A stretch of DNA of 30,677 nt from Candidatus Micrarchaeia archaeon (GCA_041671345.1 JBAZBT010000001.1:1-30677); one strand, 5' to 3'; numbered from the stretch's first letter, positions 15,914 through 30,526 are shown. The notes: generated by a model not told the origin, from the letters alone. Made by a program: numbers and translations.

Positions 15914-18499
15914 CTAGGCGGCGCGCCTGTTTGCAGGCTTGGGCCCGATTATAGGCTTTGGAACCGCCTTCACTGTTTCGTTTGCCCCTGCCGCTTCCAC
16001 TGCCGTGCCGTTGTTCAGCCCGGGCTTGGGATGCAGCATCGCTGCGCCGTTGAAGTAGAACGGCGTGAGCGGGGCGTAGTCGACTGCATTGCCCGTTATC
16101 TTGCCCTGCGAGGTGCTCGCGCTGTATGGGAAGCCTGTTCCGTTCCTGCCGATGTAGAGTGAAGGGAAACCGCTTGACGTCTGGTTGCCCTGCACCTTCA
16201 CTGCGCCCGACAGGACGTTTGCGTAGATGTTGCCCTCCTGATTGCCGTTTACGCTTGCGTTGTAGGAGTTTCCGCCCGCCATGTCGTTGATGTAAATATT
16301 GCCGCCTGTGAAGTTGTTCCAGTAGAACGTGTTGCCGCTTGCTGCCCCCTGGATTTTCACCAGGCTCCCGCCTGATGCGAGCGTGTTGTTCACAATCACG
16401 TTGCCCGTGCTGCTGCCGGAAAACGAATCGATTGTCAGCGCCGCGCCGCCCGTCGAAATCATTGTGCTGTTCTCCACCCTGTTGTTGCTGGCATCCTCTA
16501 TCAAGAGCGCGCCCGCGGTTCCCGTGAACCTGCTTGATTTGACAACCGTGAAGCTCGACGAGGTTATCCAGTTCCCCTTCAGCATGCCTCCCCCGGTGCT
16601 GTTTGCATTGCAGGCGTCCAGGACCGTATTGTTGCTGGCATATGCGCCAAAGCCCGCCGACCCGATGGCGCTGCAGTTGACAAGCAAATTGCCGCTTGAG
16701 AGGTCCAAGGCAATTCCCACGTCGTATGCTGAAATGCCTTTTGTATTTGAAAGGATGTTGTTGTTGCTTGAAGCCGATATCGATATCCCTGGCGCATCAT
16801 TCGTTATCGTGCCATTCATCGTGCCTATGCAGCTTTCCAGCACGTTGTTGCTGCTGCCGTGCATCAGCACTGATGGCGAACTGGCGCCCGGGTAATGGCG
16901 GTTGGTCCCATTCACTCCCACGAGCCGGTTGTAGTTCGAGTGTATGGTGTGCACTGCGTTATTCGATGCGGCGCCATTCTCGCCAATGTCAAAGCTGGAC
17001 GATGAGATATTGTTGTAATCGCTATTGTCCAGCCAGAGCGCATCGTCTCGGGTGGTCGCCTTGACTTTTGAAATCGTGTTGTATTGGCTTCCAATAAGCC
17101 TGACTCCTGAGCTCCTGAAATACTGGCTGGACGAACTGTCGATGCTAATGTTTTCCACATTGCTGAAAGTTGCGGATTGGAGCACTATTCCGTATGCAAA
17201 TGCGTCTAGCCTGCAGTTTCTCATCCTGGTGTTGGACCTGCCTGTGGCGTCTATCCCGGTCCCTCCGCTGCCAATTTCCGTTATGCTGTGCCCGTTGCAC
17301 TCTATTGTCACGTTGTCCGCCGCCACGGTAAAGCAAGTGCCTGTGCTGTTTAGGTTTGAAGTCACGTTGCACACATAGTTCGGCGCATTCAGCACCCCGC
17401 ACTGGCATCCCTGCGCAGGCGCCGTGGTGTTGTTGAAGTAGAACTGCGTGAGGGGCGCGTAATCAATCGCGCTGCCCACTATCTTGCCCTGCGATGTGGT
17501 CGAGTTGTACGGGTAGCCGGTTCCATTCATGCCTATGTAAAGCCCCTGCCCGTAGGCCGAGGAAACATTGCCCTGCACCTGCACGGCTCCGCTAAGCACA
17601 TTGGCATAGATGTTGCCCTCCGGCCTGCCGTTCACCAGCTTGGTGTAATAGTTGCCGGGTGAGCTGTCATTGATGTACGCGCCGCTTGTTGCGGTGAAGT
17701 TGTTCCAGTAGATGGTGTTCATTGGCGATGAAGGGTTGAGCGCCAAGAGGCTATTGGACGCGCCTCCGGAGACGAACGTGCTGCCGTATATGCTGTTGGA
17801 GAAGGCGGAGGAGAGCGACGCCACGCCGCCTGACGAGGAAGTGAAGGTGCTGTTCGCTATCGTGTTGCCGTTCCCGCCCGTGATTGCGAGGGCGGCGCCC
17901 GAGGCTGCGGTGACGCGCGCGTTTGAGACTGTGTTGGAGGCGGCCGTGAGCAGGTACAGCGCCATCGTGCTCGAGCTTGCGGTGAAATCGGAGAGCCTGT
18001 TGTCGTGCGGGCCCCCCTGCAGCACTATCTGCCCGCTTGCGTTGAAGTTGGAGAGGGTGTTGTTGGCCGTCGAGAAAATCATGTAGATGCTTTTCTGGCC
18101 TGATGCGGTGAAGCCTGCCAGGGTGTGCTGCCCTCCTGCGGCAATCGTGATGCCAGCCCCGGCTGGCGAGCTTGCCGCCGTGCCCTGCAGAAGCGCGCCT
18201 GTTGCGCCGTCGAGGTAGACGCCGGTGCTGAAGCCGTATACCATGCAGTTCCTGACCGTCGTGTTCTGCTGGTTGGAGTGGATGCCGTAGCCCGCGCCTA
18301 ACCCTGTCACGGAGTGGCCCGCGCAGTCTATCTCGACGTTGGGCGCAGCCACGGTGAAGCACGTCCCGTCTGCCTGCACATTTTGGGCAAGGGTGTAAAT
18401 GCCGGGGGATGATAGCGTTTGGCACGCCGAAACATCCACTGCGAAAGCGCTTCCTAAAAGGGCAACAAATGAGATAACGAGCATGAAATTATTCCTCAT
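15914..18499 (-). CDS. secreted right-handed parallel beta-helix (PbH1/NosD-like) surface protein with two tandem modules
   Basis: Signal peptide (MRNNFMLVISFVALLGSAFA), many NNxxxN repeats, duplicated N-cap and C-cap motifs; TTTATAAA at 18536-18543. Confidence 0.85.
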   Translation of the reverse strand: MRNNFMLVISFVALLGSAFAVDVSACQTLSSPGIYTLAQNVQADGTCFTVAAPNVEIDCAGHSVTGLGAGYGIHSNQQNTTVRNCMVYGFSTGVYLDGATGALLQGTAASSPAGAGITIAAGGQHTLAGFTASGQKSIYMIFSTANNTLSNFNASGQIVLQGGPHDNRLSDFTASSSTMALYLLTAASNTVSNARVTAASGAALAITGGNGNTIANSTFTSSSGGVASLSSAFSNSIYGSTFVSGGASNSLLALNPSSPMNTIYWNNFTATSGAYINDSSPGNYYTKLVNGRPEGNIYANVLSGAVQVQGNVSSAYGQGLYIGMNGTGYPYNSTTSQGKIVGSAIDYAPLTQFYFNNTTAPAQGCQCGVLNAPNYVCNVTSNLNSTGTCFTVAADNVTIECNGHSITEIGSGGTGIDATGRSNTRMRNCRLDAFAYGIVLQSATFSNVENISIDSSSSQYFRSSGVRLIGSQYNTISKVKATTRDDALWLDNSDYNNISSSSFDIGENGAASNNAVHTIHSNYNRLVGVNGTNRHYPGASSPSVLMHGSSNNVLESCIGTMNGTITNDAPGISISASSNNNILSNTKGISAYDVGIALDLSSGNLLVNCSAIGSAGFGAYASNNTVLDACNANSTGGGMLKGNWITSSSFTVVKSSRFTGTAGALLIEDASNNRVENSTMISTGGAALTIDSFSGSSTGNVIVNNTLASGGSLVKIQGAASGNTFYWNNFTGGNIYINDMAGGNSYNASVNGNQEGNIYANVLSGAVKVQGNQTSSGFPSLYIGRNGTGFPYSASTSQGKITGNAVDYAPLTPFYFNGAAMLHPKPGLNNGTAVEAAGANETVKAVPKPIIGPKPANRRAA

Positions 18500-18561
18500 C
18501 AAACCACCACAAACGACAATTCTGCTGCGAAGGTTTTATAAATCGCGCGCGCCCTGCCGCT

Positions 18562-18590
18562 GGGCAAAACAAATAAAAAAGGAAGAAAAA
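18562..18590 (-). terminator. oligo-T terminator after the displaced nrdJ end
   Basis: Minus strand TTTTTCTTCCTTTTTTTATTTGTTTT starts about 12 nt after the displaced TGA. Confidence 0.6.
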
Positions 18591-18602
18591 GGCGGCGGGC
18601 GT

Positions 18603-18659
18603 TCAGCTGCATCCAGTGGTCTCCCCACAGTCGATGCAGACTTGGCACGAGCCGTTCTG
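18603..18659 (-). repeat. displaced original 3' end of nrdJ ([18 protein letters not shown])
   Basis: Encodes the same 18 aa plus stop as 18719-18775 with 16 synonymous nucleotide differences; followed by a T-tract. Confidence 0.95.
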
Positions 18660-18718
18660 CCCCTAGGGGGCATTGGCTAGCCATCAGATCCCCCTGATGG
18701 TTCACCCCCACATGCTTC

Positions 18719-21700
18719 TCATGAGCAACCTGTAGTTTCACCGCAGTCTATGCACACTTGACAAGATCCATTTTGTTTTACTTTCATGGAGCTGCAGGCA
18801 AGGCACTGCGCGCCCGTGAAGCCCTGCTCCTTCGCGGCTTTTGCGCGCGTCTCGTATTCCTCGCTTTCGCTGCCCGTGTCCTTCTCGGCAGGCGCCTCCA
18901 CTAGCTTCCCCTGCGCCTTCTGGTCCTCGATGCGCGGGACGGGCGGGTGCTCGCCTGCCGCGTGCGCGCCGTGCGAGTCGCCGTTCACGGGCTTCACATG
19001 GACAAAGTCAGTCCTCTGCAAATACTCGTACCCCAGCACGCGGAACACGTAGTCCACGATGGAGGTGGCGTTCTTCACGGCATCGTGCCCGGTGACCACG
19101 CCGGCAGGCTCGAAGCGCGTGAAGGTGAACGTGTCCACGAACTCGTCGAGCGGCACTCCGTACTGCAGGCCCTTTGACACCGCGATTGCAAAGCAGTTCA
19201 AAAGCGAGCGGTAGCCCGCGCCTTCCTTGTACATGTCTATGAATATCTCGCCGAGCGCCCCGTCCGGATATTCCCCCGTTTTCAGGTACACCTTGTGCCC
19301 GCCCACCCTCGCCTCCTGGATGAAGCCGCTCCTGCGGGTCGGAAGCTTGCGCCGGTTTATCCTGCCCACTATCTTGCTCTGCATCTGCGCAGGCCCGAAC
19401 GACTCGTCTATCTCGTCGCCAAGCCCGAAAAGCTGCGCAAGCTCGTCCTCGTCGACATCCGCGGTCGCATTGAGCGGCTGGGAGAGCTTGCTGCCGTCGC
19501 GGTAAAGCGCGTTCGACTTCACCATCTGCCTCCAAGAGAGCATGTACGCCTCCTTGATGTCCTCGATGGTGGAGTCGGAGGGCATGTTCACGGTCTTTGA
19601 AATCGAGCCTGACAGGAACGGCTGCGCCGCCGCCATCATGCGTATGTGCGCGGTGTACGGGATGAACCTCTTGCCCTTTTTCCCGCACTTGTTCGCGCAG
19701 TCGAACACCGAGTAGTGCTCCTGCTTGAGGTGCGGCGCGCCCTCGATTGTCATGGTGCCGCACACGTATTCGTTCGCCTCCTCCACCTGCTGCTTGGAAA
19801 AGCCCAGCTTCGACAAAAGGTCGAACTTCGGGTCGGCGAGGTCGGCATCGGCAAACCCGAGCCCCCTCATGAAGTCCTCGCCGAGCACGTACTTGTTGAA
19901 TGCGAACTTTATGTCAAACGCCTTGGGGAGCTGCGCCTCCACCTTCGCGATTTTCTCGGCGGTGAATCCCTTTGCGGCAAGCGCCTCGGCATTCACGTGC
20001 GGGCAGCCCGAAAGCGTGCCCCTGCCTGCGGAATAAAGCTCGATGTCCCTGACCTGCGCGGCTCCGTAGCCGAGCTTGTGCAGGGCCTTCTTCACCGAGT
20101 TGTTCACAATCTTGAAGTACCCGCCCCCTGCGAGCTTCTTGAACTTCACGGTGGCAAAGTCGGGCTCGATTCCCGTGGTGTCGCAGTCCATCTGCAGGCC
20201 TATCGTCCCCGTGGGCGCAATCAGCGTGGTCTGGGCGTTCCTGTAGCCGAATTCCTCGCCGAGCGCATACGCCCTGTCCCAGCATTCCTGCGCCGACTGG
20301 AGCATGTACTCCGGGCAGTGCGTGGGGTGTATCCCCGTCGGCTTGACCGACAGCCCCTCATACTCGTTGTCCGCCGCGCTGTGCGCCGCCCTCCTGTGGT
20401 TCCGAATCACGCGCAGCATGTGCTCGCGGTTCCTCTCGAATGCGGGAAAAGCGCCAAGCTCGCGCGCCATCTCCGCCGATGTGGAATATGCCTCGCCCGT
20501 CATTATCGCCGAAATCGCGCCCGCCATGGCAAGCCCCTGCGGGCTGTCGTACGGCACGCCCATCACCATCAAAAGCGTGCCCAGGTTGGCGTATCCCAGC
20601 CCGAGCGTGCGGAACTCGTAGCTTTTCCTCGCAATCTCCTTGGAGGGGAACTGCGCCATGAGCACAGAAATTTCGAGCACGATTGTCCAAAGCCTGCTTG
20701 CGTGCTTGAATGCCTCGACGTTGAAAACGCAGGTCTCCTCGTTGTAGAACTTCATCAGGTTCATGCTGGCGAGGTTGCACGCGGTGTCGTCAAGGAACAT
20801 GTACTCCGAGCACGGGTTGGACGCGTTTATCCTGCCGTCTATCGGGCAGGTGTGCCACTCGTTTATGATGTCGTCGAACTGCAGCCCCGGGTCGGCGCAG
20901 CTCCACGCCGCGAACGCAATAGTGTCCCACAGGTCGCGCGCCTTCATCCTCTTCATCACGCTCCCGTCGGTCCTTGACAGAAGCGTCCAGTCGGCGTCGT
21001 TCTGCACCGCCCAGACAAACCTGTTGGAGAGCCTTACCGAGTTGTTGCCGTTCTGCCCTGCAACCGTGACATACGCCTCGGACTCGTAGTGCGTGTCGAA
21101 AACCGGGAAGTCGATGTCGGTCTTGCCCTGCTTGACAAGCGCGAGCGTGCGCAGTATGTAGTTCATGGAGACGTTCTTCGCAAGCGCCTGCACGACCGCG
21201 AGCTTGATGCGCTCGTTCTTCAAATCCGTGCTCTGCTCCTCCTTTGCCACGCGCATTATCCTCTTGAGGGATTTCGAGCATGCCTTGGTGCCTGCGACGA
21301 GCGCCGCCACCTTCTGCTCCTCCCTCACCTTCCAGTTCACGAATTTCTCGATGTCCGGATGGTCGACATCCACGATGACCATCTTCGCGGCGCGCCTTGT
21401 CGTGCCGCCGGATTTTATGGCGCCCGCCGCCCTGTCGTATATCTTGAGGAACGACATCATGCCTGACGACTGCCCGCCGCCCGAGAGCCTCTCCCCCTCG
21501 CCCCGCAGGCACGAGAAGTTGGTGCCCGTTCCCGAGCCGTACTTGAAAAGCCGCGCCTCGCGCGTCACGAGGTCGAATATGCCGCCCTCGTTCACGAGGT
21601 CGTCCTTCAGCGACTGGATGAAGCACGCGTGGGGCTGCGGATGCGTGTAGGCATCCGTGGACTGCTTCACCACGCCGTCAGCCGGGTCGACGTAATAGTG

Positions 21701-22216
21701 CCCCTGCCGGTTCCCCGTTATGCCGTACGCGTGCGCAAGGCCCGTGTTGAACCACTGCGGCGAGTTGGGCGACGCCATCTGGCTTGCCAGCATGAACTTC
21801 AGCTCGTCCTCGAACGCGTCCGCGTCCGATTTTGACTGGAAGTACCCGTATTTCTCGCCCCAGCTGCGCCAGCAGCCCGCGAGCCTTCCCACCACTTGCC
21901 TGACCGTTTTCTCGCTTCCGGTGACCGCCTTGCCGTTGCTGTCCTTGAGGGCGTTCCCCTGCTTGTCGTATTGCGGCACGCCGGCTTTCCTGAAGTATTT
22001 CTGCGCCACGATGTCGGTTGCCACCTGCGACCAGCTTTTCGGCACCTCGACGTCGCGCATCTCGAAGACGACCGAGCCGTCGGAGTTCCTGATGACCGAG
22101 GTGCGAAGCTCATATTCCACTGCGTCCAGCGGGTCGGCCCCCTCTTCAGTAAAAAGCCTCTTTATCTTCATTCCGCCCTGCCTGGTCGCTTGTTTTGCCA
22201 CACTCGCCTCAGCCAC
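18719..22216 (-). CDS. nrdJ: class II adenosylcobalamin-dependent ribonucleotide reductase with C-terminal TSCPD domain and Zn ribbon
   Basis: [23 protein letters not shown] (thiyl Cys), ACNLAS, APTGTIG, GIEPD; C-terminal CxxC...CxxC; GTG start with SD GAGGTG. Confidence 0.95.
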
Positions 22217-22383
22217 GTCCCCACCTCGTTTGCTCCTTGAAGTCCTGCAAGCAAAAGAGGCGCGCGAGGGCGTATTTCCTGCGAAATTCGTTAGATTGGA
22301 ATTTCGGTGCCCATTGGCACCTCATTCCAATGCAGGCAAAGCCCGTTTGCGGGCTTTGCCACACATGTTCGAACCCTGAAAAA

Positions 22384-22431
22384 CCACAATATATGGTGTT
22401 TTTAGGGTAAGCCAACCACAACCTGTTGCGC
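22384..22431. promoter_or_regulatory. tandem NrdR-box-like operators upstream of nrdJ
   Basis: CCACAATATATGGTGT (22384-22399; 14/16 to consensus acaCwAtATaTwGtgt) and CCACAACCTGTTGCGC (22416-22431), starts 32 bp apart. Confidence 0.75.
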
Positions 22432-22454
22432 TTGCAACGGATATCGGGCGGACA

Positions 22455-22472
22455 CATTTATATAGCTTCTTT
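22455..22472 (-). promoter_or_regulatory. BRE/TATA promoter of nrdJ
   Basis: Minus strand AAAGAAGC-TATATAAA-TG; predicted TSS at about 22434, immediately upstream of the NrdR-like boxes. Confidence 0.55.
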
Positions 22473-22496
22473 TGCGCGCGAAAACAACGGCGAGGT

Positions 22497-22670
22497 GGGC
22501 AAAACCTGGGAAGATTTTTTGCCCGCCCACTTTTTGCTTGGAGCAAAGGCTCCACTCCCAGGGCAAAACCTGGGAAAAATTTGCCAGAATTGCAAGCGCA
22601 GCTTGCACTCGGATGGGAAAACCTTGGGGTGGAAAATCGCCTGCCACTGGGCGAACCGGGAAAACCTGGG
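22497..22670. repeat. four-copy GGG(C)AAAACCT(T)GGG array with nested palindromes
   Basis: AAAACCT cores at 22501, 22565, 22618 and 22661; the first two copies share an identical 16-mer GGGCAAAACCTGGGAA. Confidence 0.85.
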
Positions 22671-22673
22671 CGG

Positions 22674-22713
22674 TTTTGCATGGCTCACAATACTTTTGCA
22701 TGGCTCACAATAC
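22674..22713. repeat. perfect 20-bp tandem duplication
   Basis: TTTTGCATGGCTCACAATAC x2 (22674-22693, 22694-22713). Confidence 0.95.
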
Positions 22714-22745
22714 ATTTAACTACCTTTCGCAACACAGTTTGACCC

Positions 22746-23720
22746 ATGTTTTACCCTATGCGCTCTGGCAAGCCGCCCAAGCCCAATGCACGGCTGGAAA
22801 GGGAGCGTCTCCTGCGGGACAAGCTCGAAGAGTGCGAGGGCGCATTCCCAAGCCTCACCCCTGAAATGCGCAAATGGTTCAATTATTACCGGCAAGGCAA
22901 AGGGTTCGAGCAGCTGCCTGAAGACATGCAACGGGCGATGCGGAGGCTCAACAGCAGGCTGAAAAACGAGTTTGGCGCCCGGCTTCCCCGTTCCAGCCCA
23001 GAATCCGCAGCCGACGGCTCCTGGCTCGCAGACGGCGCCGCCTGCAGCAAAGCGAGGAACAGGCCGGCTGGCGCGCCATATGACAAGGAGATGGCGGCAA
23101 TCGTGAAGGCGGACGTCGTCGCATTCAGCTCCGAAATCACAAATTACTGGGCAAAGCTCCTCCTGGACCATGGCGCATTCCAGGGCGGGAACAGGCGCGC
23201 GCCGTCCATGGATTCGGAAAGCGAAGATGAAAAAAGGCTGGCGTACGGGCATGGCTGCTGCCTCAAGCTTGCAATGCAGGGCAAGCTTCCCTTTGAAACC
23301 GAGCTTATCCTCAAGAGATTCACCCCCGACTTCGACCTTGTCGGGCTATGGGCGCAAAGGCTGGAGATGCGCGGGGGCATCATGGCGGAAACCGGCAGCA
23401 TCCCCTCCATTTCCATCGCATCGCAGCGCAACCTTTCCTTTTGGCTATACACCGTGTCCAACCTCATTGCCGACGGCAGGCTGCCAACGGCGGCGGCATG
23501 GCTATCCGAGAACTTCAAGCCCATCTGCGCGCTTCAGGGGTATTTGGCATTTGCCCGGTCAATCGGCGGCGAGGAAAACATCCGGCCCGATTTGGGCATC
23601 CACGAGGCAACCCGCCTGTCCGCCTGGCGGGAAGAAATGCGGGCCCTCCATGCCGAAGGCGGGCTCTCCCCGCACGTTATCGTGCAAATGAAGGACAGCA
23701 CCAAAATCCTGGGCGACTGA
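22746..23720 (+). CDS. hypothetical protein with about 3 degenerate helicase-associated (HA)-like repeats
   Basis: W...G..P......L..W......G.L pattern, e.g. WAQRLE...ETGSIPS...RNLSFWL...DGRL and RLSAWREEMRALHAEGGLS; TTTAAC at about 22715-22720. Confidence 0.6.
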   Translation: MFYPMRSGKPPKPNARLERERLLRDKLEECEGAFPSLTPEMRKWFNYYRQGKGFEQLPEDMQRAMRRLNSRLKNEFGARLPRSSPESAADGSWLADGAACSKARNRPAGAPYDKEMAAIVKADVVAFSSEITNYWAKLLLDHGAFQGGNRRAPSMDSESEDEKRLAYGHGCCLKLAMQGKLPFETELILKRFTPDFDLVGLWAQRLEMRGGIMAETGSIPSISIASQRNLSFWLYTVSNLIADGRLPTAAAWLSENFKPICALQGYLAFARSIGGEENIRPDLGIHEATRLSAWREEMRALHAEGGLSPHVIVQMKDSTKILGD

Positions 23721-23828
23721 ACATTTTTTTCGCCGCCTTCGGCTTGCCGCCCCCATGCTGCTCGGCAGCCGGCTGGCCGCCCATCGGCAACCTGCTGATT
23801 TATTAACTCTTTGAACACTTTTTACAAC

Positions 23829-24230
23829 ATGAAAAAGTTCAACCTAGTGCCCTCATTCCAGTGGGTTTCGGCATCAACATTCCCATTCCAGCACGGGCGC
23901 CCCACCCCAACCTCCGGGAAGCTGGTGCGGGTCGCGCCTGAGTTCCTCAGCGTGCAGCCGCTCAAGCGGGAACCGCCCGCCCTTCTCTCGCGGCAGGAAA
24001 GCAAATGGTCCTTCACGCTCATGGGGTTTGTTGATTTCGTCTCCGGGCATGAAGGCTCGTTTCCCAGCCGCAAAAGCGCAGACAAGCACGAGCGGGACCT
24101 TGCCAATTGGTGGCGCCTCCAGGCTGAGAAGTTCAATGCTGGCAGGCTCAGCGCATACCAGGTGGGCGCGCTGGTCGACGCAGGGCTGGCTTATTACTAC
24201 AAGCCCAAGCCAGTCGCCGACCTGTTCTGA
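23829..24230 (+). CDS. stand-alone helicase-associated (HA) domain protein, 133 aa
   Basis: WSFTLMGFVDFVSGHEGSFPSRKSADKHERDLANWWRLQAEKFNAGRLSAYQVGALVDAG fits the HA-domain pattern (W...l..f...hG..P....e..L..W...Q...f..G.Ls..qi..L...G). Confidence 0.65.
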   Translation: MKKFNLVPSFQWVSASTFPFQHGRPTPTSGKLVRVAPEFLSVQPLKREPPALLSRQESKWSFTLMGFVDFVSGHEGSFPSRKSADKHERDLANWWRLQAEKFNAGRLSAYQVGALVDAGLAYYYKPKPVADLF

Positions 24231-24302
24231 TGCCTATTTTTGCGCACCCACCGCAAGCTATTTAACCTGAACTCCGTATCTTCGGTGGGAAGGGTGTTTT
24301 AC

Positions 24303-25223
24303 TTGAAAAAATCTCAGTCACAACCTCAGAACGCGCAATCGCCTGCAGTCGGGACATTCGCGGTGAAGGCAGGCCTCGCCCAGATGCTCAAGGGCGGCGT
24401 GATAATGGACGTGATAAACGCCGAACAGGCAAAGCTTGCAGAGGACGCGGGCGCTGTCGCGGTGATGGCGCTTGAAGCCGTGCCAGCGGACATCCGCCGG
24501 CTTGGCGGGGTGGCGCGCATGAGCGACCCGCGGCGCATCAGGGAGATACGGGCGGCGGTTTCCATCCCGGTCATGGCCAAATGCAGGATAGGGCATTTCG
24601 TGGAGGCGCAGGTGCTGCAGTCCCTCAAGGTGGATTACATCGACGAGAGCGAAGTGCTCACCGTCGCGGACGCGGCCCACCACATCGACAAATGGTCGTT
24701 CTCGGTGCCTTTCGTGTGCGGCTGCCGCGACCTTGGCGAGGCGCTGCGCCGCATATCCGAGGGCGCGGCGATGATAAGGACAAAGGGCGAGGCGGGCACG
24801 GGCAACATCATCGAGGCAGTGCGCCACATCAGGGCGGTGAACGAGGAAATCGCCGGCCTGAAGGGCATGGGCAGGAAGGATTTGGTGCGGGCCGCGCACG
24901 ACATGCGCGTGCCGGCATCGCTTGTGGAAAAGGTGGCGCAGCTGGGCAGGCTGCCCGTGGTGAATTTCGCGGCAGGCGGGATAGCGACGCCTGCTGATGC
25001 CGCGCTTTGCATGCAGCTTGGCGTGGACGGCGTGTTCGTGGGCAGCGGGATATTCAAGTCGTCCGACCCAGAGAGGCGCGCGCAGGCGATTGTGGACGCG
25101 GTTGCGCACTACGACGAGCCTGACAAGATATGCGCAGCGTCCGAAGGCTTGGGCAAGCCCATGGACAGCATGGACGTCAACACCCTCAAGCCGGAAGAGA
25201 GGCTTTCCAGGCGAGGCATCTGA
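24303..25223 (+). CDS. pdxS: pyridoxal 5'-phosphate synthase lyase subunit
   Basis: [58 protein letters not shown]; likely TTG start at 24303. Confidence 0.96.
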
Positions 25224-25225
25224 TT

Positions 25226-25819
25226 ATGGCCAATCCCGAACGAATGAAAAAAATCGGAGTGCTCTCATTGCAGGGCGGGGTGGAGGAGCACATCAACGCG
25301 CTTCTCTCAGCCTCTGCAAAATGCTCGCTGCCGGTCCAGGTGGTGGAAGTCCGCTCGCAAGAGGACGCCGAAGGGCTTGACGGGATAATATTGCCCGGCG
25401 GCGAGTCCACATCGATTGGCCGTCTCATGGAGCGCGAGGGGCTGTTCCCGGGCATATTGCGCGTGCGGAAAATATTCGGCACGTGCGCCGGCGCCATCAT
25501 GCTTGCAAAGAACGTGGAGGGCGCGGTGCCGGGGCAGCGCTTCCTCTCGCTCATGGACATAACGGCCTCGCGCAACGCATACGGCTCGCAGCTCTCATCG
25601 TTCGAGGCGCGCCTCACCACGGTGTTCGGCACCATAAACGGCGTGTTCATCCGCGCGCCCAAAATCGCGCCCACATCCAAGGACTGCCAGCCCATGGCGT
25701 TCCACGGCGAAGAAATAGTCGCGGCATACCAGAAGAAGGGCGAGCGCCATTTCCTCGCGTCCTCGTTCCACCCCGAGCTCACCACGACGAAATTCCACGA
25801 GTTCTTCCTTAAACTCTAG
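25226..25819 (+). CDS. pdxT: PLP synthase glutaminase subunit
   Basis: IGVLSLQG, LPGGEST, GTCAG, RNAYGSQ, FIRAP, SFHPEL. Confidence 0.95.
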   Translation: MANPERMKKIGVLSLQGGVEEHINALLSASAKCSLPVQVVEVRSQEDAEGLDGIILPGGESTSIGRLMEREGLFPGILRVRKIFGTCAGAIMLAKNVEGAVPGQRFLSLMDITASRNAYGSQLSSFEARLTTVFGTINGVFIRAPKIAPTSKDCQPMAFHGEEIVAAYQKKGERHFLASSFHPELTTTKFHEFFLKL

Positions 25820-25883
25820 CTTTTCCATCTTTTACCACTCTATTTAAATACTTTTTGTGCCACAATGAATAACGGGTGGTGCT

Positions 25884-26546
25884 TTGAACTTCAAAACCTT
25901 TATTGAAAAATTCAAGCCGAAAAGCAAGGAACAGCGCGAGCTTGAGCTCCGCAAGGGCGACTTCTCTGAAAAAGGCCTGAAGAACGCGCTTGACAAGGCC
26001 TTCCAGAGGATGCAGGAAAGCGGAGTGGATCGTGTTGTGCTCAGCGCCGTCCCGCTTCCGGCCAATGAGCCGTCGAGCGGGGAGAAGCACCCGGGCAATT
26101 ATTACCCCGCGGAATCGCTTACTTCTGTTGAACGCCCATATATCAAGGAAAGCGAGCACAAGCCATACCAAGTGGTTGCATTGCTTGCGGATGGCGCAGA
26201 AAAGCTTTCTGGCAACTCTATAGAAGTCGTTGACAGGGTGCCATTCTTTGTCTTCAGCCTTGTCGAGCCGCATAGGTTTTCCAAAGCCAGGACAGTTTTC
26301 AACGGCGAGCAGGAGATAGATGCATTCGTCAAAATTGCCAGCGTGCAAAAAGGGATTTCGGCAGGCGCCACACTCGCGGCAGTCGAGCCGCAGATAGCGG
26401 AGTACAAGCAGATAACAACCCGGCTCTTTGAGAAGTCAGGCGTCTACGAGGCGGTGGAAAAGCTTGCTGCGCGCGAATTTGCCAACGAAACAGACAAGTT
26501 TCTGTTTAGCATAAGGGAAGCCATTGCTTCTGCGAAGAAGGATTAA
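25884..26546 (+). CDS. hypothetical protein, 220 aa
   Basis: ORF with TATTTAAATA at about 25842-25851 and a TTG start; no recognisable motif. Confidence 0.6.
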   Translation: MNFKTFIEKFKPKSKEQRELELRKGDFSEKGLKNALDKAFQRMQESGVDRVVLSAVPLPANEPSSGEKHPGNYYPAESLTSVERPYIKESEHKPYQVVALLADGAEKLSGNSIEVVDRVPFFVFSLVEPHRFSKARTVFNGEQEIDAFVKIASVQKGISAGATLAAVEPQIAEYKQITTRLFEKSGVYEAVEKLAAREFANETDKFLFSIREAIASAKKD

Positions 26547-26548
26547 GC

Positions 26549-26583
26549 CTGCGTCCCCTTCGCGCAGTCGTTGCAGACAAAGC
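26549..26583 (-). repeat. displaced copy of the Zn-finger gene 3' end (direct repeat 1)
   Basis: 34/35 identical to 27347-27381; reads FVCNDCAKGTQ, then A and a TAA stop at 26543-26545. Confidence 0.95.
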
Positions 26584-26598
26584 TCCAAGGGGAGTCCC

Positions 26599-27303
26599 TC
26601 AAGCTTTAGGCGTTTCTGTTATCATGTCGAATTCTTTCTCATACTTGCCTCTTAGAAATACCTCGAATATGGCGATGGCAAATGGAAGCAAGATTGCATA
26701 TGGCGCCAGCAAAACCGTTCCGGCAAGAGTCAGCTTGCCGATGAATTTTTTCAATGATCTGCCCGTGAACTGGTTGTTCTTTTTTAAAACAGCGGCATAT
26801 TCCCCCTTTCCGATGATTTTCGATGCAAGAATGTCTGTTCTTGCCTCGATTTTTCCAATAAAAACAGCAAGAAAGACGTTTACTGCCGCAATCGTGCCAA
26901 TTGCCAGCCCGGCCGATTTGGTGGCTATCGAATAAATTATAGCTGCGGCTTCCAAGGCGTATGCAAGATAGATGGTCGCCCCGAACTTTTTCACGTCTTT
27001 TTTATAGTAATGGATGAACTCATGCGCTGAAACAGCATTCACCGTGCCCTTGTCCGCAATGCCCAGATAGGGAACTGAAAAGGAAACAGCGCCTTTCCAC
27101 GTGTTGCTGGCTTGCGGAAACGGCAATTTATGCAATTCCATCCTTGGCGGGGCAATTCCAAACATTTTGGACAGCTTCCGAATCCTGTCTTCAGCCACTG
27201 CCGCATTCGCCACGGCTTTTTTAGAATAAGCCCCGCCTGTAACCGGCTCCCGAAACAAAGACTGTTTTGTTGCCCGCATAGGATGGAATCTATGCAGAAG
27301 CAT
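26599..27303 (-). CDS. M48/M56-like membrane zinc metallopeptidase (cassette cargo)
   Basis: HEFIH motif, two TM helices, then EARTD (third-ligand position); AT-richer than host genes. Confidence 0.7.
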   Translation of the reverse strand: MLLHRFHPMRATKQSLFREPVTGGAYSKKAVANAAVAEDRIRKLSKMFGIAPPRMELHKLPFPQASNTWKGAVSFSVPYLGIADKGTVNAVSAHEFIHYYKKDVKKFGATIYLAYALEAAAIIYSIATKSAGLAIGTIAAVNVFLAVFIGKIEARTDILASKIIGKGEYAAVLKKNNQFTGRSLKKFIGKLTLAGTVLLAPYAILLPFAIAIFEVFLRGKYEKEFDMITETPKA

Positions 27304-27340
27304 TTTTAAAAGTAGCCAAAAGTGGAACTGCGCGAGAGAG

Positions 27341-27481
27341 CTACTGCTGCGTCCCCTTTGCGCAGTCGTTGCAGACAAAGCCCGTCTTGCAGTTCGGCCT
27401 TCCGCAGTTGCCCTTCCCGCACGCGCGGCAGGTCTCGGTCGCAGTCCTCCCGCAAATCGCGCACAAACCAGCAATGTTCAT
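27341..27481 (-). CDS. small Cys-rich zinc-finger protein, 46 aa (absent from the ORF track)
   Basis: MNIAGLCAICGRTATETCRACGKGNCGRPNCKTGFVCNDCAKGTQQ* has three CxxC motifs plus 2 Cys; TTTAAATATA box about 30 nt upstream. Confidence 0.85.
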   Translation of the reverse strand: MNIAGLCAICGRTATETCRACGKGNCGRPNCKTGFVCNDCAKGTQQ

Positions 27482-27509
27482 AAGAATCACTTCAACGGGA
27501 ATTGGGGGG

Positions 27510-27521
27510 CTATATTTAAAA
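27510..27521. promoter_or_regulatory. shared TATA element between the divergent Zn-finger and ACT genes
   Basis: CTATATTTAAAA sits about 30 nt from ATG 27481 (-) and about 21 nt from ATG 27542 (+). Confidence 0.55.
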
Positions 27522-27541
27522 TTTGTCGCCCAACTTGGCGC

Positions 27542-27928
27542 ATGGCAGGAAAAAACCTTCTCCCCGCGCTTTCGGACGGAAAGTATTTCGTCGGCTCATT
27601 TTCCGAGGCTCAGATGATGGGGCTGGCAGGCTACCTGCAGCACATAACCTGCATCTTCCGCGAGGAAGAGGGGCTCACCGTTGTATTCTCTGGGAATGCA
27701 AAATCCGCCCTGGAAATATACACCGAGAAAAAGATGCAAGGACCGTTCGCGCTCATCACATTGCGCGCGCCAACTTCCCTTCTCGACGTTGGCATAACTG
27801 CGGCGTTCTCATCCGCGCTTGCGCGCGAAAAAATCCCGGCAAACGTGTATGCCGGCTACCACCACGACCACGTGCTTGTCCCGTACGAAAAGCGCGAGGC
27901 TGCGCTTTCGGCGCTGAAAAAATTGTAG
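27542..27928 (+). CDS. ACT-domain protein (DUF2241/CASTOR-like)
   Basis: FREEEGLTVV, LLDVGITAAFSSALAREKIPANVYAGYHHDHVLVP. Confidence 0.85.
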   Translation: MAGKNLLPALSDGKYFVGSFSEAQMMGLAGYLQHITCIFREEEGLTVVFSGNAKSALEIYTEKKMQGPFALITLRAPTSLLDVGITAAFSSALAREKIPANVYAGYHHDHVLVPYEKREAALSALKKL

Positions 27929-27937
27929 AAATAATGC

Positions 27938-28693
27938 CTAAGCGGTTTCCTGGGGGGGATTAAGCTTCTCCTCCAAGTCTGCAAGCCTGGCTAATCTCTT
28001 CTTCAAAGTAGGATGCGTGCTGAATATCGGGTGCTTTTCCCTCCACCGCAAAAATGACAGCTCGGCGCTTCCCTTCAGCGTGCCGTATCTGCCTTCCCAC
28101 AGGAACGATGCAATATATTCAATAAGCGGTTTCGCACTCCCGTTGAGCGTTGCTGCGTATTTATCGGCGCTTATTTCACATACTCTCGAAAACCATTTCC
28201 TGGCAAGCCATGCCGCCAGCATGCATGCGCCTATCGCCGGGGCTTTTTGGGCAAACGACTCAAATGCATCTGGAAAAGCTGCAAACAGCTTTAGCACGCC
28301 TGTTATTAGCAAAGTCGCAGCCGCAATCCCGAATGCTATCTTCTTCATGATGTGTTTCTTTGCAATGTGCCCCAGCTCGTGCCCGATTGCGCCCCTCACG
28401 GCGTTTTCGCTGAAGGTGCCGAGCCTTTCGCCCACAACTACTGTGGTGAACCCGGACGCGGCGCCATACGCAGAGGCTGCCCTTCTTTTACCCTCTTCCT
28501 TCCTGACATATATGCTGCTTAAGCCTGCCTTTATGATGAGCTCCCTTGCAATGTTGCCGATTTCCGCATCAGTCAGCTCTTTCTTCTGCTTTCCAATAAG
28601 CTTGGGCGGGGTGTCGCCCTTTCTTTTCCCAAAAGCTGCGCTATGCCTTTTGCTTGCAACCTGCAAGTATGGCACTAGCAATGCCTGTTTCAT
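27938..28693 (-). CDS. M48 family (HtpX-like) zinc metallopeptidase
   Basis: HELGH, EISAD, STHPTLKKR; two TM helices; own TATA (TTTAAAAA at about 28715-28722). Confidence 0.85.
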   Translation of the reverse strand: MKQALLVPYLQVASKRHSAAFGKRKGDTPPKLIGKQKKELTDAEIGNIARELIIKAGLSSIYVRKEEGKRRAASAYGAASGFTTVVVGERLGTFSENAVRGAIGHELGHIAKKHIMKKIAFGIAAATLLITGVLKLFAAFPDAFESFAQKAPAIGACMLAAWLARKWFSRVCEISADKYAATLNGSAKPLIEYIASFLWEGRYGTLKGSAELSFLRWREKHPIFSTHPTLKKRLARLADLEEKLNPPQETA

Positions 28694-28752
28694 AATTCTC
28701 TTATGCTGGCTAGACTTTTTAAATGTTGCCTAAAATGAGTTTTTGTGCCATG

Positions 28753-28800
28753 TCACTTCAGCACGCCGTAGCCCGGCAATCTCCGCCGTTGGCCAAAGCG
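28753..28800 (-). repeat. displaced, decaying copy of the aIF2gamma 3' end
   Basis: Reads RFGQRRRLPGYGVLK* versus active RLGQRWRLSGYGVLK* (29299-29346). Confidence 0.9.
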
Positions 28801-28814
28801 CCCGCCTAATCACT

Positions 28815-29264
28815 TCAGTATATGTACTCAATTTTCACTCCTGGGAAATCCTTTGCCGTGGGCACATAATCGCTCCTTACGAAGCTGACAATCCTCGTTC
28901 CATCCTTGAACTGGAAACGCATCCATGTGCTCCTCGGGCCCCTTACGGCTTGGGCCAAAGGCTGATGGAATTCCACTTTTTCCAGCCGTGCAATCAAGTA
29001 TTTTTTCGACGTCTGCGCGGCAAGCGGTTTTTTGGTCAGGAATTCGATTGTCCCACTGGCGCTTTGCACGCGGACTTCCCTTTCAGTCGCAAGATCCATC
29101 ATGGCAAATGCAATTATGGCAAAGAAAACTGCTCTAAATACTGGGGTAACCCATCCTTCCGCGGGGTCTACAAAAAAATAAAGAAGGCTGAATAAGCAGC
29201 ACGCAAGCGCTAGGGCCACTGCAACATCAAATATCCGTTGATTGGAATTTTTCCTCGCCAACAC
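28815..29264 (-). CDS. 2-TM membrane protein with beta-rich (PH-like) cytoplasmic domain (cassette cargo)
   Basis: Two hydrophobic helices followed by a beta-strand pattern; AT-richer; SD-like AGGGTGA upstream. Confidence 0.6.
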   Translation of the reverse strand: MLARKNSNQRIFDVAVALALACCLFSLLYFFVDPAEGWVTPVFRAVFFAIIAFAMMDLATEREVRVQSASGTIEFLTKKPLAAQTSKKYLIARLEKVEFHQPLAQAVRGPRSTWMRFQFKDGTRIVSFVRSDYVPTAKDFPGVKIEYIY

Positions 29265-29298
29265 AATGCAGTCTTTTTCTTTCGTGTCTTCACCCTGT

Positions 29299-30495
29299 TT
29301 ACTTCAGCACGCCGTACCCTGACAATCTCCATCTCTGCCCGAGCCTGCGCGTGATTGCCATCTTGTTGCCCTTCTCGGCGCAGACGGGGCGCTTGAGCTT
29401 CAGCGTCACCGTGGTGCCCTTGAGCTTGACAATGACGCCAAGCGTGGTCGCCGTGCCAGACGAAACCACGAGCGGCTCCGCGGCTTTCAGCGCAGGATTG
29501 TCAAAGCCTTCGCGCGCAAGCAGCTTGTAATCAAGCACAATCTCCGAAAGAATGGGCGGAAGCGTCCCCTTTTTCCCGATCAAATTCCCGACGAGGTGGT
29601 CCGACTTCGCAACCGCGGGGTCAAGCCCTGTTGCAACGCCGATGAGCCCGCCCGGGTGCGCCTCCTGCACCGACTGGCTGCCCGCCATGAGCGCGGTCAC
29701 TTTCAGGACAAGGGGCTCGGTGCTTTCCTTGTCCTTTATCTTCTTGGAAATGCCCGGGGCGATTTCAATCTCGTCGCCCACTTTCAGGGTGCCCTGTATG
29801 AGCGAGCCGCCCACCACGCCCCCCTTCAGCTTCAATATGTCCGCGCCCGGCTTGTTCACGTCGAACGAGCGCGCCACGTACATGCGCGCGGGAAGCGAGG
29901 TGTCCCTCTTCGGGGTTGGAATCGTCTTCTCAATCGCCTCGATGAGCTTGTCTATGTTCGCGTTGTAGTTTGCGGATATCGGGACAATGGGCGCGCCCTC
30001 GGCAGTGGAGCCCTTGAGGAATTTCTTTATCTGCCTGTAGTTCTCCATCGCCTTTTCCTTGTCCACCAGGTCTATCTTGTTCTGCACCACCACGACGTTT
30101 TTTATGCCGAGGATGTCCAGCACCTGCAAATGCTCCTCCGTCTGCGGCTGGGGGCAAACTTCGTTCGCGGCAATCACCAATACCGCGCCGTCCAGTATGG
30201 AAGACGCCGATATGGTGGTGGTCATGAGCGTTTCATGCCCTGGCGCGTCAAGGAAGGAAACATAGCGCGCGACTTCCCACTTGTCCTTGTCCTTTGCCGC
30301 CTCTGCCTCGGTGGCATACCCTGTGCCGTCCTTGCCCTTGTAAAAAGTCACGTCCGCGTAGCCTATCTTTATCGTGATGCCGCGCTTGAGCTCCTCGGAG
30401 TGCGTGTCCGTCCACTTGCCCGTAAGCGCGCGCGTTAAGCTAGTCTTTCCGTGGTCGACGTGCCCGACCATCCCGATGTTCACTTCAGCTTGCAT
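29299..30495 (-). CDS. eif2g: translation initiation factor 2 gamma subunit (aIF2gamma)
   Basis: VNIGMVGHVDHGKT, EELKRGITIKIGY, DAPGHE, QPQTEEH, NKID, RSFDVNKPG, GGVVGG. Confidence 0.97.
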   Translation of the reverse strand: MQAEVNIGMVGHVDHGKTSLTRALTGKWTDTHSEELKRGITIKIGYADVTFYKGKDGTGYATEAEAAKDKDKWEVARYVSFLDAPGHETLMTTTISASSILDGAVLVIAANEVCPQPQTEEHLQVLDILGIKNVVVVQNKIDLVDKEKAMENYRQIKKFLKGSTAEGAPIVPISANYNANIDKLIEAIEKTIPTPKRDTSLPARMYVARSFDVNKPGADILKLKGGVVGGSLIQGTLKVGDEIEIAPGISKKIKDKESTEPLVLKVTALMAGSQSVQEAHPGGLIGVATGLDPAVAKSDHLVGNLIGKKGTLPPILSEIVLDYKLLAREGFDNPALKAAEPLVVSSGTATTLGVIVKLKGTTVTLKLKRPVCAEKGNKMAITRRLGQRWRLSGYGVLK

Positions 30496-30526
30496 CAAAT
30501 GCCTCAATTGATTGAATCAGAAAAAA

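Follow-up and report, generated by a model that had tools for sequence, protein, structure and literature searches.

The window that we analysed, a 30,677-nt stretch of the genome of a Candidatus Micrarchaeia archaeon (GCA_041671345.1, hereafter G000; a groundwater Micrarchaeota, 0.96 Mb, 72% complete), carries three essential genes, nrdJ, a 46-aa zinc-finger gene and aIF2-gamma, each with a second, untranslated copy of its last 13-18 codons and stop lying downstream. All three tail duplications are on the minus strand. A first-pass annotation had read them as insertion-type events that supply a replacement 3' end, and this much is supported at each of the three genes. We compared G000 with 22 congeners (23 genomes in all), to which the labels G003-G022 refer.

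Three displaced gene ends

nrdJ (18719..22216, minus strand) encodes, by its ORF and translation, a class II ribonucleotide reductase of 1165 aa. Its new tail, the last 18 codons, occupies 18722-18775 (minus strand), and downstream of it a stranded old tail of 18 codons and TGA lies at 18603..18659 (minus strand), beyond which come a T-rich terminator and the next gene's promoter region. The two tails are identical at 18/18 amino acids; they differ at ~16 nucleotides, with no amino-acid change, and pN/pS between them is 0.04. The longest identical stretch is at most 8 nt, and within each copy the codon style is uniform, with no hybrid structure. Orthologues are present in 19/22 congeners, and the last 60 nt of nrdJ have an identity to close relatives of 0.67-0.78, versus 0.93 for the adjacent window; the best match of these 60 nt is the distant congener G017 (0.85). 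G006 carries an empty allele, a homologous T-rich region following its nrdJ stop directly. G022 has an independent nrdJ tail event, also diverged as coding sequence.

aIF2-gamma (402 aa; 29299..30507, minus strand; Pfam GTP_EFTU and eIF2_C) has 95% amino-acid identity to that of G018. Downstream of its new tail copy (29302-29346, minus strand) lie, all on the minus strand, cargo 1, an ORF for a 149-aa predicted membrane protein (28815..29264), the stranded old tail of 15 codons and TGA (28753..28800), which is decaying, and an M48 peptidase gene (27938..28693; PF01435, E = 2e-19). Across the last 15 codons the new and old tails are identical at 12/15 amino acids, the repeats have 16 identical nucleotides in common, and the old tail departs from the genus consensus by 3-4 amino-acid changes. 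The new tail has the codon pattern CGC AGG CTC GGG, as in G018, G022 and G012, and the old tail has AGG CGC CTT GGC, as in G021 and G003. The DNA 3' of the old tail's stop matches the DNA 3' of the aIF2-gamma stop in G022 and G021. These two genomes have the empty allele, in which M48 follows aIF2-gamma directly, ~60 nt away in each; M48 of G000 is 85% identical to that of G021 and 61% to that of G022, and the ACT gene is 89% identical to that of G006 versus 65-67% to those of G021 and G022. A Pfam scan of cargo 1 gave no match, and the sole homologue found among 121 genomes of the order (~30% identity) is in G006, where it occupies this position with no duplicated tail beside it.

The zinc-finger gene (27341..27481, minus strand), with four CxxC motifs and a 'QQ-type' end, is conserved genus-wide and sits directly 3' of aIF2-gamma in distant genus members. 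Its new tail repeat (27347-27381, minus strand) recurs in a stranded old tail with a 'QA-type' end and TAA (26543..26583, minus strand) as a repeat of 35 nt with 1 mismatch (97% identical; identical runs of 22 and 12 nt). Cargo 2, an HExxH membrane protein gene (26599..27279, minus strand), precedes the old tail; it would encode 226 aa from the second ATG (27279) or 234 aa from the ATG at 27303, and the second is probably the start, the database gene call also being 226 aa. The cargos had been thought to lack promoters of their own, yet a TTTTAAAA box at 27311-27304, centred ~28 nt upstream of the 27279 ATG, gives cargo 2 a plausible one. Its Pfam scan returned a weak DUF5700 match, and its database clusters are only two, itself and a 71% relative.

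The QQ end and the next 63 nt are identical to G006. The stop of the old tail overlaps that of a convergent 220-aa gene (hyp220), and a QA-type end beside convergent hyp220 is the arrangement of G018 (contig C42) and G022. In a G018-like strain cargo 2 lies between the zinc-finger gene and pdxT without the old tail; the last 10 nt of cargo 2 are the reverse complement of a pdxT 3' end, and pdxT is 95% identical to that of G022.

Chance, assembly and recurrence

The first-pass annotation had proposed looking for genome-wide enrichment, for empty alleles in relatives, found as described above, and for chimeric assembly. We scanned 1.14 million same-strand pairs of stop-anchored 13-aa tails at most 4 kb apart and found 24 real tail pairs with at least 11/13 identity; among 1.14 million random tail pairs, none exceeded 9/13 apart from 34 self-picks. 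A second scan, of 808 long ORFs, found a downstream tail copy for five and an upstream head copy for ten, versus 0 of either kind in each of five flank shuffles. Chance is excluded as the source of the tail duplications. Nor did assembly create them: 18300-19136 and 28021-29418 are covered by Logan contigs of run X1, and 26110-27305 and 27820-29364 by those of run X2, from a different study and year, all with zero differences. Chimeric assembly of co-occurring strains is close to refuted. Several congeners do co-occur in the same groundwater, as variant contigs, and slot 2 is present in two versions in the G018 MAG; but these independent k-mer contigs, which come from two studies, run across the joints, the identical bases common to the copies are too few to have confused a de Bruijn graph, and the five-contig genome G020 has the same pattern.

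About seven more G000 genes have displaced ends, most without cargo. Recoded tail copies lie 45-110 nt 3' of the amidohydrolase, aconitase-family, NAC and 550-aa genes, and the spacers tested at these genes (4/4) are unique in the genome; more decayed copies lie downstream of ProRS and a KH-domain gene. Amidohydrolase tail copies are also present in G018, G003 and G012, two further cases came from 396 kb of G020, and the 5' ends of genes and the tRNA genes of the genus bear like scars. Across cases the direct repeats are 7-69 nt long, the inserts measure 45-800 nt and contain no integrase remnant, and possible microhomology at the joints is just 1-3 nt, the aIF2-gamma joint having a 9-nt CTGAAGTGA repeat besides. 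The fixed spacings of 34-37 nt and 14-15 nt around the cargos, on which the idea of a cassette had leaned, do not extend further: the distance from new stop to old end is 0-56 nt in other cases, and the cargo149-like ORF of G006 could start 7-14 nt past the stop.

For nrdJ, aIF2-gamma, four other G000 genes and the independent G022 nrdJ event, pS is 0.6-1.2 and pN/pS is 0-0.25, which neutral decay after local duplication cannot explain. Most pairs differ almost exclusively at synonymous sites, and the copies thus diverged in different lineages.

Element E, enzyme searches and known systems

Element E, a 49-nt hairpin by single-sequence folding (18661..18709, plus strand, antisense to nrdJ), separates the new stop of nrdJ from the stranded tail. 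A supposed remnant SD and ATG at 18684 falls inside this conserved element and is no cargo remnant. E is found in 22 of the 23 genus genomes at 1-14 copies each (0 matches for a reversed-pattern control) and forms tandem arrays; no Rfam family matched it. It makes up the bulk of the intron of a tRNA-Arg(TCT) on contig C126, placed at position 37/38 by ARAGORN and Rfam. Judged by its interruption of an anticodon loop and the tRNA restored upon its removal, E appears to be an archaeal tRNA intron; in at least eight congeners, by-eye reading suggests that removal of T-loop inserts restores a canonical T-arm. At G000 nrdJ, G020 uvrA, G018 tRNA-Cys, G011 tRNA-Asp and a G007 locus, the CCCTAGGG end of E lies 0-1 nt from a truncated fragment and the intact gene begins 1-29 nt past its other end. 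The uvrA locus has three 100% identical gene-head copies, a 118-nt repeat unit and two E copies. E is absent from the aIF2-gamma and zinc-finger joints; the latter has a CCCCTTGG motif resembling E's end. Partial tRNA duplications on G000 contigs C85 and C92 carry other hairpins.

No nuclease, integrase or terminal inverted repeats had been seen in cis, and our Pfam and repeat searches agree: flanking inverted repeats do not exceed chance at the loci, and no insert holds an endonuclease ORF (Pfam scan of both cargos; the nrdJ insert is 116 nt). The first-pass annotation had also suggested looking for such genes elsewhere in the genome. PF00589 (tyrosine recombinase/integrase; 14/14 control genomes positive), PF01797 and PF07282 (Y1 HUH transposase, TnpB) and PF01867 (Cas1) each had no match in G000, which is only 72% complete, so that a trans-acting enzyme may be unassembled; a free-standing LAGLIDADG gene is present on contig C12, and a LAGLIDADG intein on C7. 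A casposon does not fit, with no Cas1 match in the 72%-complete genome, no flanking inverted repeats above chance and repeats of 35-57 nt versus a 14-15 bp target duplication; nor does an IS200/IS605-type or REP/RAYT element, PF01797 and PF07282 having no match in this incomplete genome. For a free-standing homing-endonuclease cassette, the recoded end upstream and original downstream were found, and the endonuclease ORF was not.

In atp6 of Allomyces (fungal mitochondria), a mobile endonuclease ORF reportedly brings a foreign C-terminus, and free-standing phage homing endonuclease genes are said to do likewise. There, as here, a recoded replacement end lies upstream of the insert and the original is stranded downstream, but no insert here has an endonuclease gene, and most are too short for coding. 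Minimal mobile elements, or flexible-gene hot spots between conserved genes, occur in Neisseria and other bacteria; they too place differing genes in one slot between conserved flanks, swapped by flank recombination, although the classical exchange is a clean double crossover in which the flanking gene end is not duplicated. With integrative elements of archaea, a portion of a tRNA or protein gene becomes duplicated (att), for example the Caldiarchaeum tRNA-Thr (PMC3293823), leaving a partial copy on one side and an intact gene on the other. The tRNA genes of this genus have the same layout, but here no integrase was found, there is no identical core at nrdJ, and the inserts are tiny.

Like REP, MITE and RPE hairpins and mobile archaeal tRNA introns (Fujishima 2010; ARMAN endonuclease, PMC3239211), E is short, structured and multi-copy; its copies occur at the 3' ends of genes and also within tRNA genes, where they occupy both canonical and non-canonical intron positions. 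It differs in having no known partner transposase and no fixed target-site duplication, and a link to long gene-end duplications is not described for these families. C-terminal displacement at Rhs, CdiA and T6SS loci (Jackson 2009; Kirchberger 2017, PMC5361080) leaves a conserved part, a new 3' end with its gene, and the displaced old 3' end with its gene; it draws on relatives, involves no locus recombinase, and is proposed to need one homologous anchor and an illegitimate joint, the topology at T6SS and Rhs loci being ascribed to homology-facilitated illegitimate recombination (PMC5361080). In G000 we likewise found a conserved body, a foreign new 3' end and an old end displaced with its own neighbours. 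The tips there are differing toxins with immunity genes, in selected arrays, whereas here, in a DPANN archaeon, we found no such tips: both ends encode one and the same housekeeping peptide, one cargo is a membrane protein and the other an HExxH protein, and many events involve no gene.

Proposed recombination at gene ends and its alternatives

G006 carries, without duplicates, the haplotypes aIF2-gamma-cargo149-like-ACT and ZnF(QQ)-cargo233-like-pdxT, and G018, G022 and G021 carry aIF2-gamma-(M48)-ACT and ZnF(QA)-hyp220-pdxT. In G000 the two stand in tandem, and only 13-15 codons remain of the second copy of the gene. As read from gene order and sequence, its aIF2-gamma and zinc-finger layout is the overlapping union of two haplotypes found separately in sister species, for which ordinary recombination with one illegitimate joint suffices and no dedicated machine is needed.

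We put at about an even chance that the duplications mark joints left by recombination between diverged members of the genus, at hypervariable slots that would begin where the conserved gene ends. The route we infer is a homologous crossover and an illegitimate join, by homology-facilitated illegitimate recombination or by strand invasion and copying with end joining. DNA of another lineage would pair with the resident chromosome inside the conserved gene and cross over there. Past the stop codon the lineages would differ by a cargo gene, a small hairpin element or a few dozen bases, and because they carry different DNA there, the far end could not recombine homologously; its joining would be illegitimate, at a point a few codons short of the resident stop. 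The product would be the gene with one lineage's tail, stop and downstream DNA, followed by the other lineage's last 7-18 codons, stop and downstream genes, and either side of the joint may be the incoming one. Only events leaving one intact gene end would survive, and in a compact genome visible scars would concentrate at gene ends; the stranded end, untranslated, would decay, as at aIF2-gamma.

Coding-style divergence, empty alleles, the haplotype union and gene-scale mosaicism (ACT, M48, pdxT) support this crossover, as do the new nrdJ tail being nearest a distant congener, recurrence without cargo or repeats, the failure to find a recombinase, and the amidohydrolase tail copies in congeners. 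It is weakened because none of the 22 congeners yielded a donor haplotype of nrdJ followed by E, and because the nrdJ patch seems mixed, with a G017-like tail and an E copy of G000's own clade type. Joint microhomology is weak or absent, and stranded ends are consistently 7-18 codons, an outcome not expected of a purely random illegitimate join. One-sided illegitimate recombination is not known from any DPANN archaeon, which also counts against it.

In several cases a small hairpin lies exactly at the joint, always with the same polarity, a hint of an element-driven step. Palindromic repeats of the genus, E among them, might insert near gene ends, making or carrying a long target duplication, with recoding arising later by interspecies overwriting of the functional copy; the cargo cases would either stand apart from this or use degenerate element ends. 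The abutment of E on truncated fragments at five loci, its multiple copies and arrays, the hairpins on C85 and C92 and the E-end-like motif at the zinc-finger joint fit such insertion. We nevertheless consider it unlikely: four recoded cases have unique spacers and no repeat element, repeats of such varied length are unlike a fixed target-site duplication, two joints are without E, no transposase family was found in the incomplete G000, and two events (insertion, then allele replacement) are invoked where one is enough. A dedicated trans-acting system of homing type, in which a nuclease would cut conserved ends and repair would copy in a cassette with a recoded, cleavage-immune end, seems quite improbable. 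The synonymous recoding does begin at the insertion point, as homing immunity predicts, nrdJ tails show unusually high silent-site divergence among close relatives, with remnants in G022, G012 and possibly G021, and besides the LAGLIDADG genes on C7 and C12 there is a probable intein (a ~1-kb in-frame insert) in nrdJ of G018, G021, G022 and G012. But that silent divergence equals the ordinary between-species level, neither cargo is a nuclease, spacings and joint sequences are unconserved, the majority of cases have no cargo, G006 has cargo-like genes at both positions without scars, and many specificities would be required for at least ten genes plus 5' ends and tRNA genes.

Decay of integrative elements, whereby a tyrosine or serine recombinase element would have entered a gene end (att duplication) and its integrase would since have disappeared, is very unlikely. 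Although the 35-nt zinc-finger repeat and the 16 identical nucleotides at aIF2-gamma could be att cores, and partial tRNA duplicates are classic archaeal integration scars (PMC3293823), no more than 8 identical nt are common to the nrdJ copies, which are not hybrid, the inserts hold no integrase remnant, and PF00589 has no match in the 72%-complete G000. The cassette system of fixed architecture put forward by the first-pass annotation is not supported: spacings vary, one cargo has a plausible promoter, most cases are cargo-free, G006 has its cargo-like genes (~30% identity) at both positions without duplication, and scars extend to 5' ends and tRNA genes. The displaced ends look like patchwork-recombination scars between related species, with no new gene-cassette machine and a putative enzymology.

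It is doubtful, though conceivable, that DPANN archaea, and perhaps CPR bacteria, have an undescribed enzyme-driven insertion of DNA into the ends of essential and tRNA genes, with hairpins such as E and occasional cassettes entering together with a replacement gene end. If true, it would amount to a 'gene-end-complementing' class of mobile DNA and would also explain the movement of archaeal tRNA introns, with E as a mobile tRNA-intron family.

Duplicated gene ends in the window and across the genome

The window is one entire contig of the G000 assembly (0.96 Mb, 128 contigs, 72% complete), and the sequencing runs that contain this contig are groundwater metagenomes. On the minus strand, aIF2-gamma (30507..29299) is followed by a 149-aa membrane ORF, an M48 peptidase gene, a convergent ACT-domain gene, a 46-aa zinc-finger gene with four CxxC motifs, an HExxH ORF, the convergent gene hyp220, pdxT, pdxS, two orphan genes and nrdJ (22216..18719, also minus). 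Duplicated 3' ends had been reported at three of these genes in the first-pass annotation, and we found all three. A second copy of the last 18 codons of nrdJ lies 116 nt downstream and differs at about 16 nucleotides with no amino-acid change (18/18 identical). The final 15 codons of aIF2-gamma have a counterpart 546 nt downstream with 12/15 amino acids identical, and a 35-nt stretch of the zinc-finger gene reappears, with one mismatch, 798 nt downstream. We refer to the in-gene last codons and stop as the new end, to the stranded, untranslated copy as the old end, and to the ORF between them (the 149-aa ORF at aIF2-gamma, the HExxH ORF at the zinc-finger gene) as cargo.

Such end duplications exceed chance and do not stem from assembly artefact. 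Of 1.14 million same-strand, stop-anchored pairs of 13-aa tails no more than 4 kb apart, 24 were identical at 11 or more of the 13 positions, and no random 13-aa tail pair exceeded 9/13 when self-picks were set aside. The claim of recurrence also held genome-wide: 5 of 808 long ORFs had a copy of their tail (7 of 8 aa) in the 260 nt that follow, and for 10 a head copy lay upstream, compared with no matches in each of five flank-shuffle controls. Independent Logan contigs from two runs of two studies (2018 and 2022) match the window exactly across the nrdJ joint, along the entire aIF2-gamma cassette and at the old end of the zinc-finger gene. No excision joint between the two copies of any pair was present in the contigs of groundwater runs X1 and X2, a type of assembly that drops rare variants.

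Recoded tail copies also occur 45-110 nt downstream of an amidohydrolase gene, an aconitase-family gene, NAC and a 550-aa gene, and more decayed copies follow a ProRS gene, a KH-domain gene and a GTPase gene. None of these seven further cases has a cargo gene, and all four of the spacers tested are unique in the genome. An amino-acid-kinase gene (C2:24238-24320, locus L066) presents the 5' mirror image, with a recoded copy of its first codons (MLVLKIGGS) 71 nt upstream of the real start. The last 9-10 codons of the amidohydrolase are duplicated downstream in four species (G000, C4:14942-15028, and orthologues in the congeners G018, G003 and G012; loci L167-L172), with spacers of 12-56 nt that are partly homologous among them and, in G000, a third copy with an internal deletion. 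Scars mark about 1% of G000 genes, and the five-contig congener genome G020 has two more recoded tail copies in 396 kb. Tandem duplications of 47-92 nt, exact or nearly so and of about 2.5 copies each, also run across gene ends in G000 (C4:7728-7860, C15:10040-10200, C36:7700-7870, C26:8560-8800 and C18:1990-2300), one of them adjoining a GT4 glycosyltransferase gene.

Two architectural features that the first-pass annotation had ascribed to the cassettes did not hold up. The spacings had been described as fixed, and the distance from new stop to old end is 0-56 nt in other cases. The cargo had been thought to lack a promoter; the HExxH ORF has a TTTTAAAA box centred about 28 nt upstream of its second ATG, most likely the start given a 226-aa database gene call, so a promoter of its own is plausible. 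We also rejected mobility of the cargo beyond the clade, as 5.8 billion proteins contain only one further cluster for the HExxH ORF and 121 genomes of the order one distant homologue of the 149-aa ORF, and a motif or repeat family shared by the aIF2-gamma and zinc-finger joints, where there is only a weak CCCCTTGG resemblance.

Comparison with congener genomes

The order aIF2-gamma, slot 1, ACT, zinc finger, slot 2, pdxT-pdxS and, further on, nrdJ and slot 3 is common to 22 other species genomes of the genus. As the proposal of gene insertion implied, empty alleles exist in relatives: nrdJ of G006 has no insert, and slot 1 holds M48 alone in G021 and G022. Slot 1 is empty in G018, contains a homologue of the 149-aa ORF (~30% identity) without a duplicate in G006, and in G000 contains the 149-aa ORF, a truncated aIF2-gamma end and M48. 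At slot 2, G018 (contig C42) and G022 have the convergent hyp220 and one variant of the zinc-finger end, QA-type. The other variant, QQ-type, is followed by the HExxH ORF in G006 (~30% identity; the 63 nt past the stop are identical to G000) and in a G018-like strain (71% identity). G000 has the QQ end, the HExxH ORF, a truncated QA end and hyp220. The sequence 3' of its old aIF2-gamma end matches that past the aIF2-gamma stop in G022 and G021, and the Arg/Leu codon pattern is of G021/G003 style in the old end and of G018/G022 style in the new end. G000 thus combines, with an overlap, two haplotypes that occur separately in sister species. Since the HExxH ORF ends in 10 nt that read as the reverse complement of a pdxT 3' end, the piece from the first haplotype extends from the zinc-finger gene right up to pdxT. 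The nearest relative differs from one neighbouring gene to the next (ACT, 89% to G006; M48, 85% to G021; pdxT, 95% to G022), which indicates gene-scale mosaicism around the slots. The G018 assembly itself contains two versions of slot 2, pdxT-hyp220-zinc finger (C42) and pdxT-HExxH ORF at a contig end (C135; loci L050, L051), pointing to strain heterogeneity exactly at this slot.

The two copies of an end diverged as coding sequence: pS is 0.6-1.2 and pN/pS 0-0.25 (Nei-Gojobori) for nrdJ of G000 and G022, aIF2-gamma and genes on C13, C4, C128 and C107. Local tandem duplication followed by neutral decay was therefore rejected for these genes, since the changes are almost all silent; local tandem duplication is still a plausible origin of the exact tandem repeats at C4:7791, C15 and C36 and of the pairs at the ProRS, KH-domain and GTPase genes. 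The nrdJ protein of G006 is 93% identical to that of G000 yet has no insert. Thus, the silent divergence could not have arisen in place, and one nrdJ copy derives from another lineage; for the same reason, splicing of the insert from the mRNA, with both tails translated, is unnecessary. Use of the second copy through stop-codon read-through or frameshifting was rejected as well, as copies occur in all three frames with stops between. The new nrdJ tail of G000 is 0.67-0.78 identical to those of close relatives, compared with 0.93 for the stretch just upstream, and its best match is the distant congener G017 (0.85). G022 and G012 have their own independent remnants of the nrdJ end downstream of the nrdJ stop, the one in G022 interrupted by a 55-nt two-hairpin insert. 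The aIF2-gamma relic carries 3-4 amino-acid changes relative to the genus consensus, so it is an older relic in decay.

Two further observations concern nrdJ. An X2 contig covering window positions 18718-19307 includes the nrdJ tail of a co-occurring congener, with no listed differences from the new tail of G000 over the last ~33 nt, 9 third-codon differences just upstream and complete divergence past the stop. In G018, G021, G022 and G012 (loci L050, L052, L053), nrdJ is interrupted in frame, near residue 197, by about 1 kb of extra sequence, giving open frames of 1490-1614 aa; this insert is probably an intein, and nrdJ of G000 and G006 is without it.

A hairpin element at the nrdJ joint

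The nrdJ spacer consists of 9 nt and a 49-nt hairpin element, E (window 18661-18709, plus strand), which reads CCCTAGGGGGCA, about 20 variable nt, then TCCCCCTGA(G/T)GG(T/C)TCACCCCC. What had been taken for a remnant SD and ATG sits within this conserved element. E is found in 22 of 23 genomes of the genus at 1-14 copies each (in G000 also at C126:772-820, C115:2685 and C124:2699; loci L091-L125), a reversed-pattern control had no matches, and no Rfam family matches it. E makes up most of the tRNA-Arg(TCT) intron in the anticodon loop, forms an intron-like insert in the tRNA T-loop in at least 8 genomes, and also lies 1-2 nt past tRNA 3' ends, in some cases as tandem arrays. At five loci direct repeats of a gene end lie on either side of E, and at all five the truncated fragment adjoins its CCCTAGGG end. 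At the start of uvrA in G020 (C1:390200-390500, loci L089/L090), the first 13 codons are present three times with 100% identity, and two copies of E, plus a 29-nt leader, stand between them (repeat unit 118 nt); this is a fresh mirror image, at a 5' end, of what is seen at nrdJ. The tRNA-Cys gene of G018 and the tRNA-Asp gene of G011 are arranged similarly. Other hairpins lie between 2-3 tandem partial copies of tRNA genes in G000, comprising promoter and 5' part at C85:2760-3140 and the 3' part at C92:1980-2360, with repeat periods of 117 and 113 nt. Restriction cutting at CCTAGG, at the end of E, was rejected: CTAG is ten-fold under-represented genome-wide (381 observed, ~3500 expected), and the scarcity of CCTAGG is no greater than follows from this. 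GGATCC, found 12 times against 300 expected, is also strongly depleted.

Proposed displacement of old ends by one-sided recombination

One homologous crossover inside a conserved gene plus one illegitimate joint is the simplest account of all cases, and we give it an even chance of being correct. Each event would involve a single crossover within the gene, and the other joint, formed illegitimately a few codons before the resident stop, would displace the old end. Selection would remove any event that leaves no intact gene end, the compactness of the genome would place joints within gene ends, and quick loss of relics would leave most surviving ones still codon-perfect. Displacement of an old end, as in our reading of G000, has been proposed for T6SS and Rhs loci (PMC5361080).

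An element-driven mechanism seems unlikely to us, though the consistent polarity of E at the joints lends it some weight. We are more doubtful still of a dedicated homing-type system, and decayed integrative elements are the least probable of these. The LAGLIDADG domains of G000 are confined to a C7 intein and to a free-standing 261-aa gene (C12:598-1383, locus L058) that has AT-rich codons, apparently adjoins rRNA-like sequence and possibly lies within an rRNA intron. Searches of the 72%-complete G000 turned up no tyrosine recombinase, Y1 transposase, TnpB or Cas1, extending genome-wide the lack of an integrase first noted in cis, and the lack of terminal inverted repeats was borne out, the one 14-nt pair being at chance level. 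A diversity-generating retroelement was rejected, as differences between copies are not adenine-specific.

If the reading of one crossover and one illegitimate joint holds, displaced ends would be a readable footprint of one-sided interspecies recombination in an uncultured DPANN genus, each scar marking the end of a foreign tract and the lineage that supplied each side. The scars would also show how genes can be added beside essential operons without integrases in ultra-small, compact genomes. Finally, the presence of E at the nrdJ joint ties the scars to tRNA introns, so that the long-standing question of how such introns spread in archaea can be put to a direct test in this genus.
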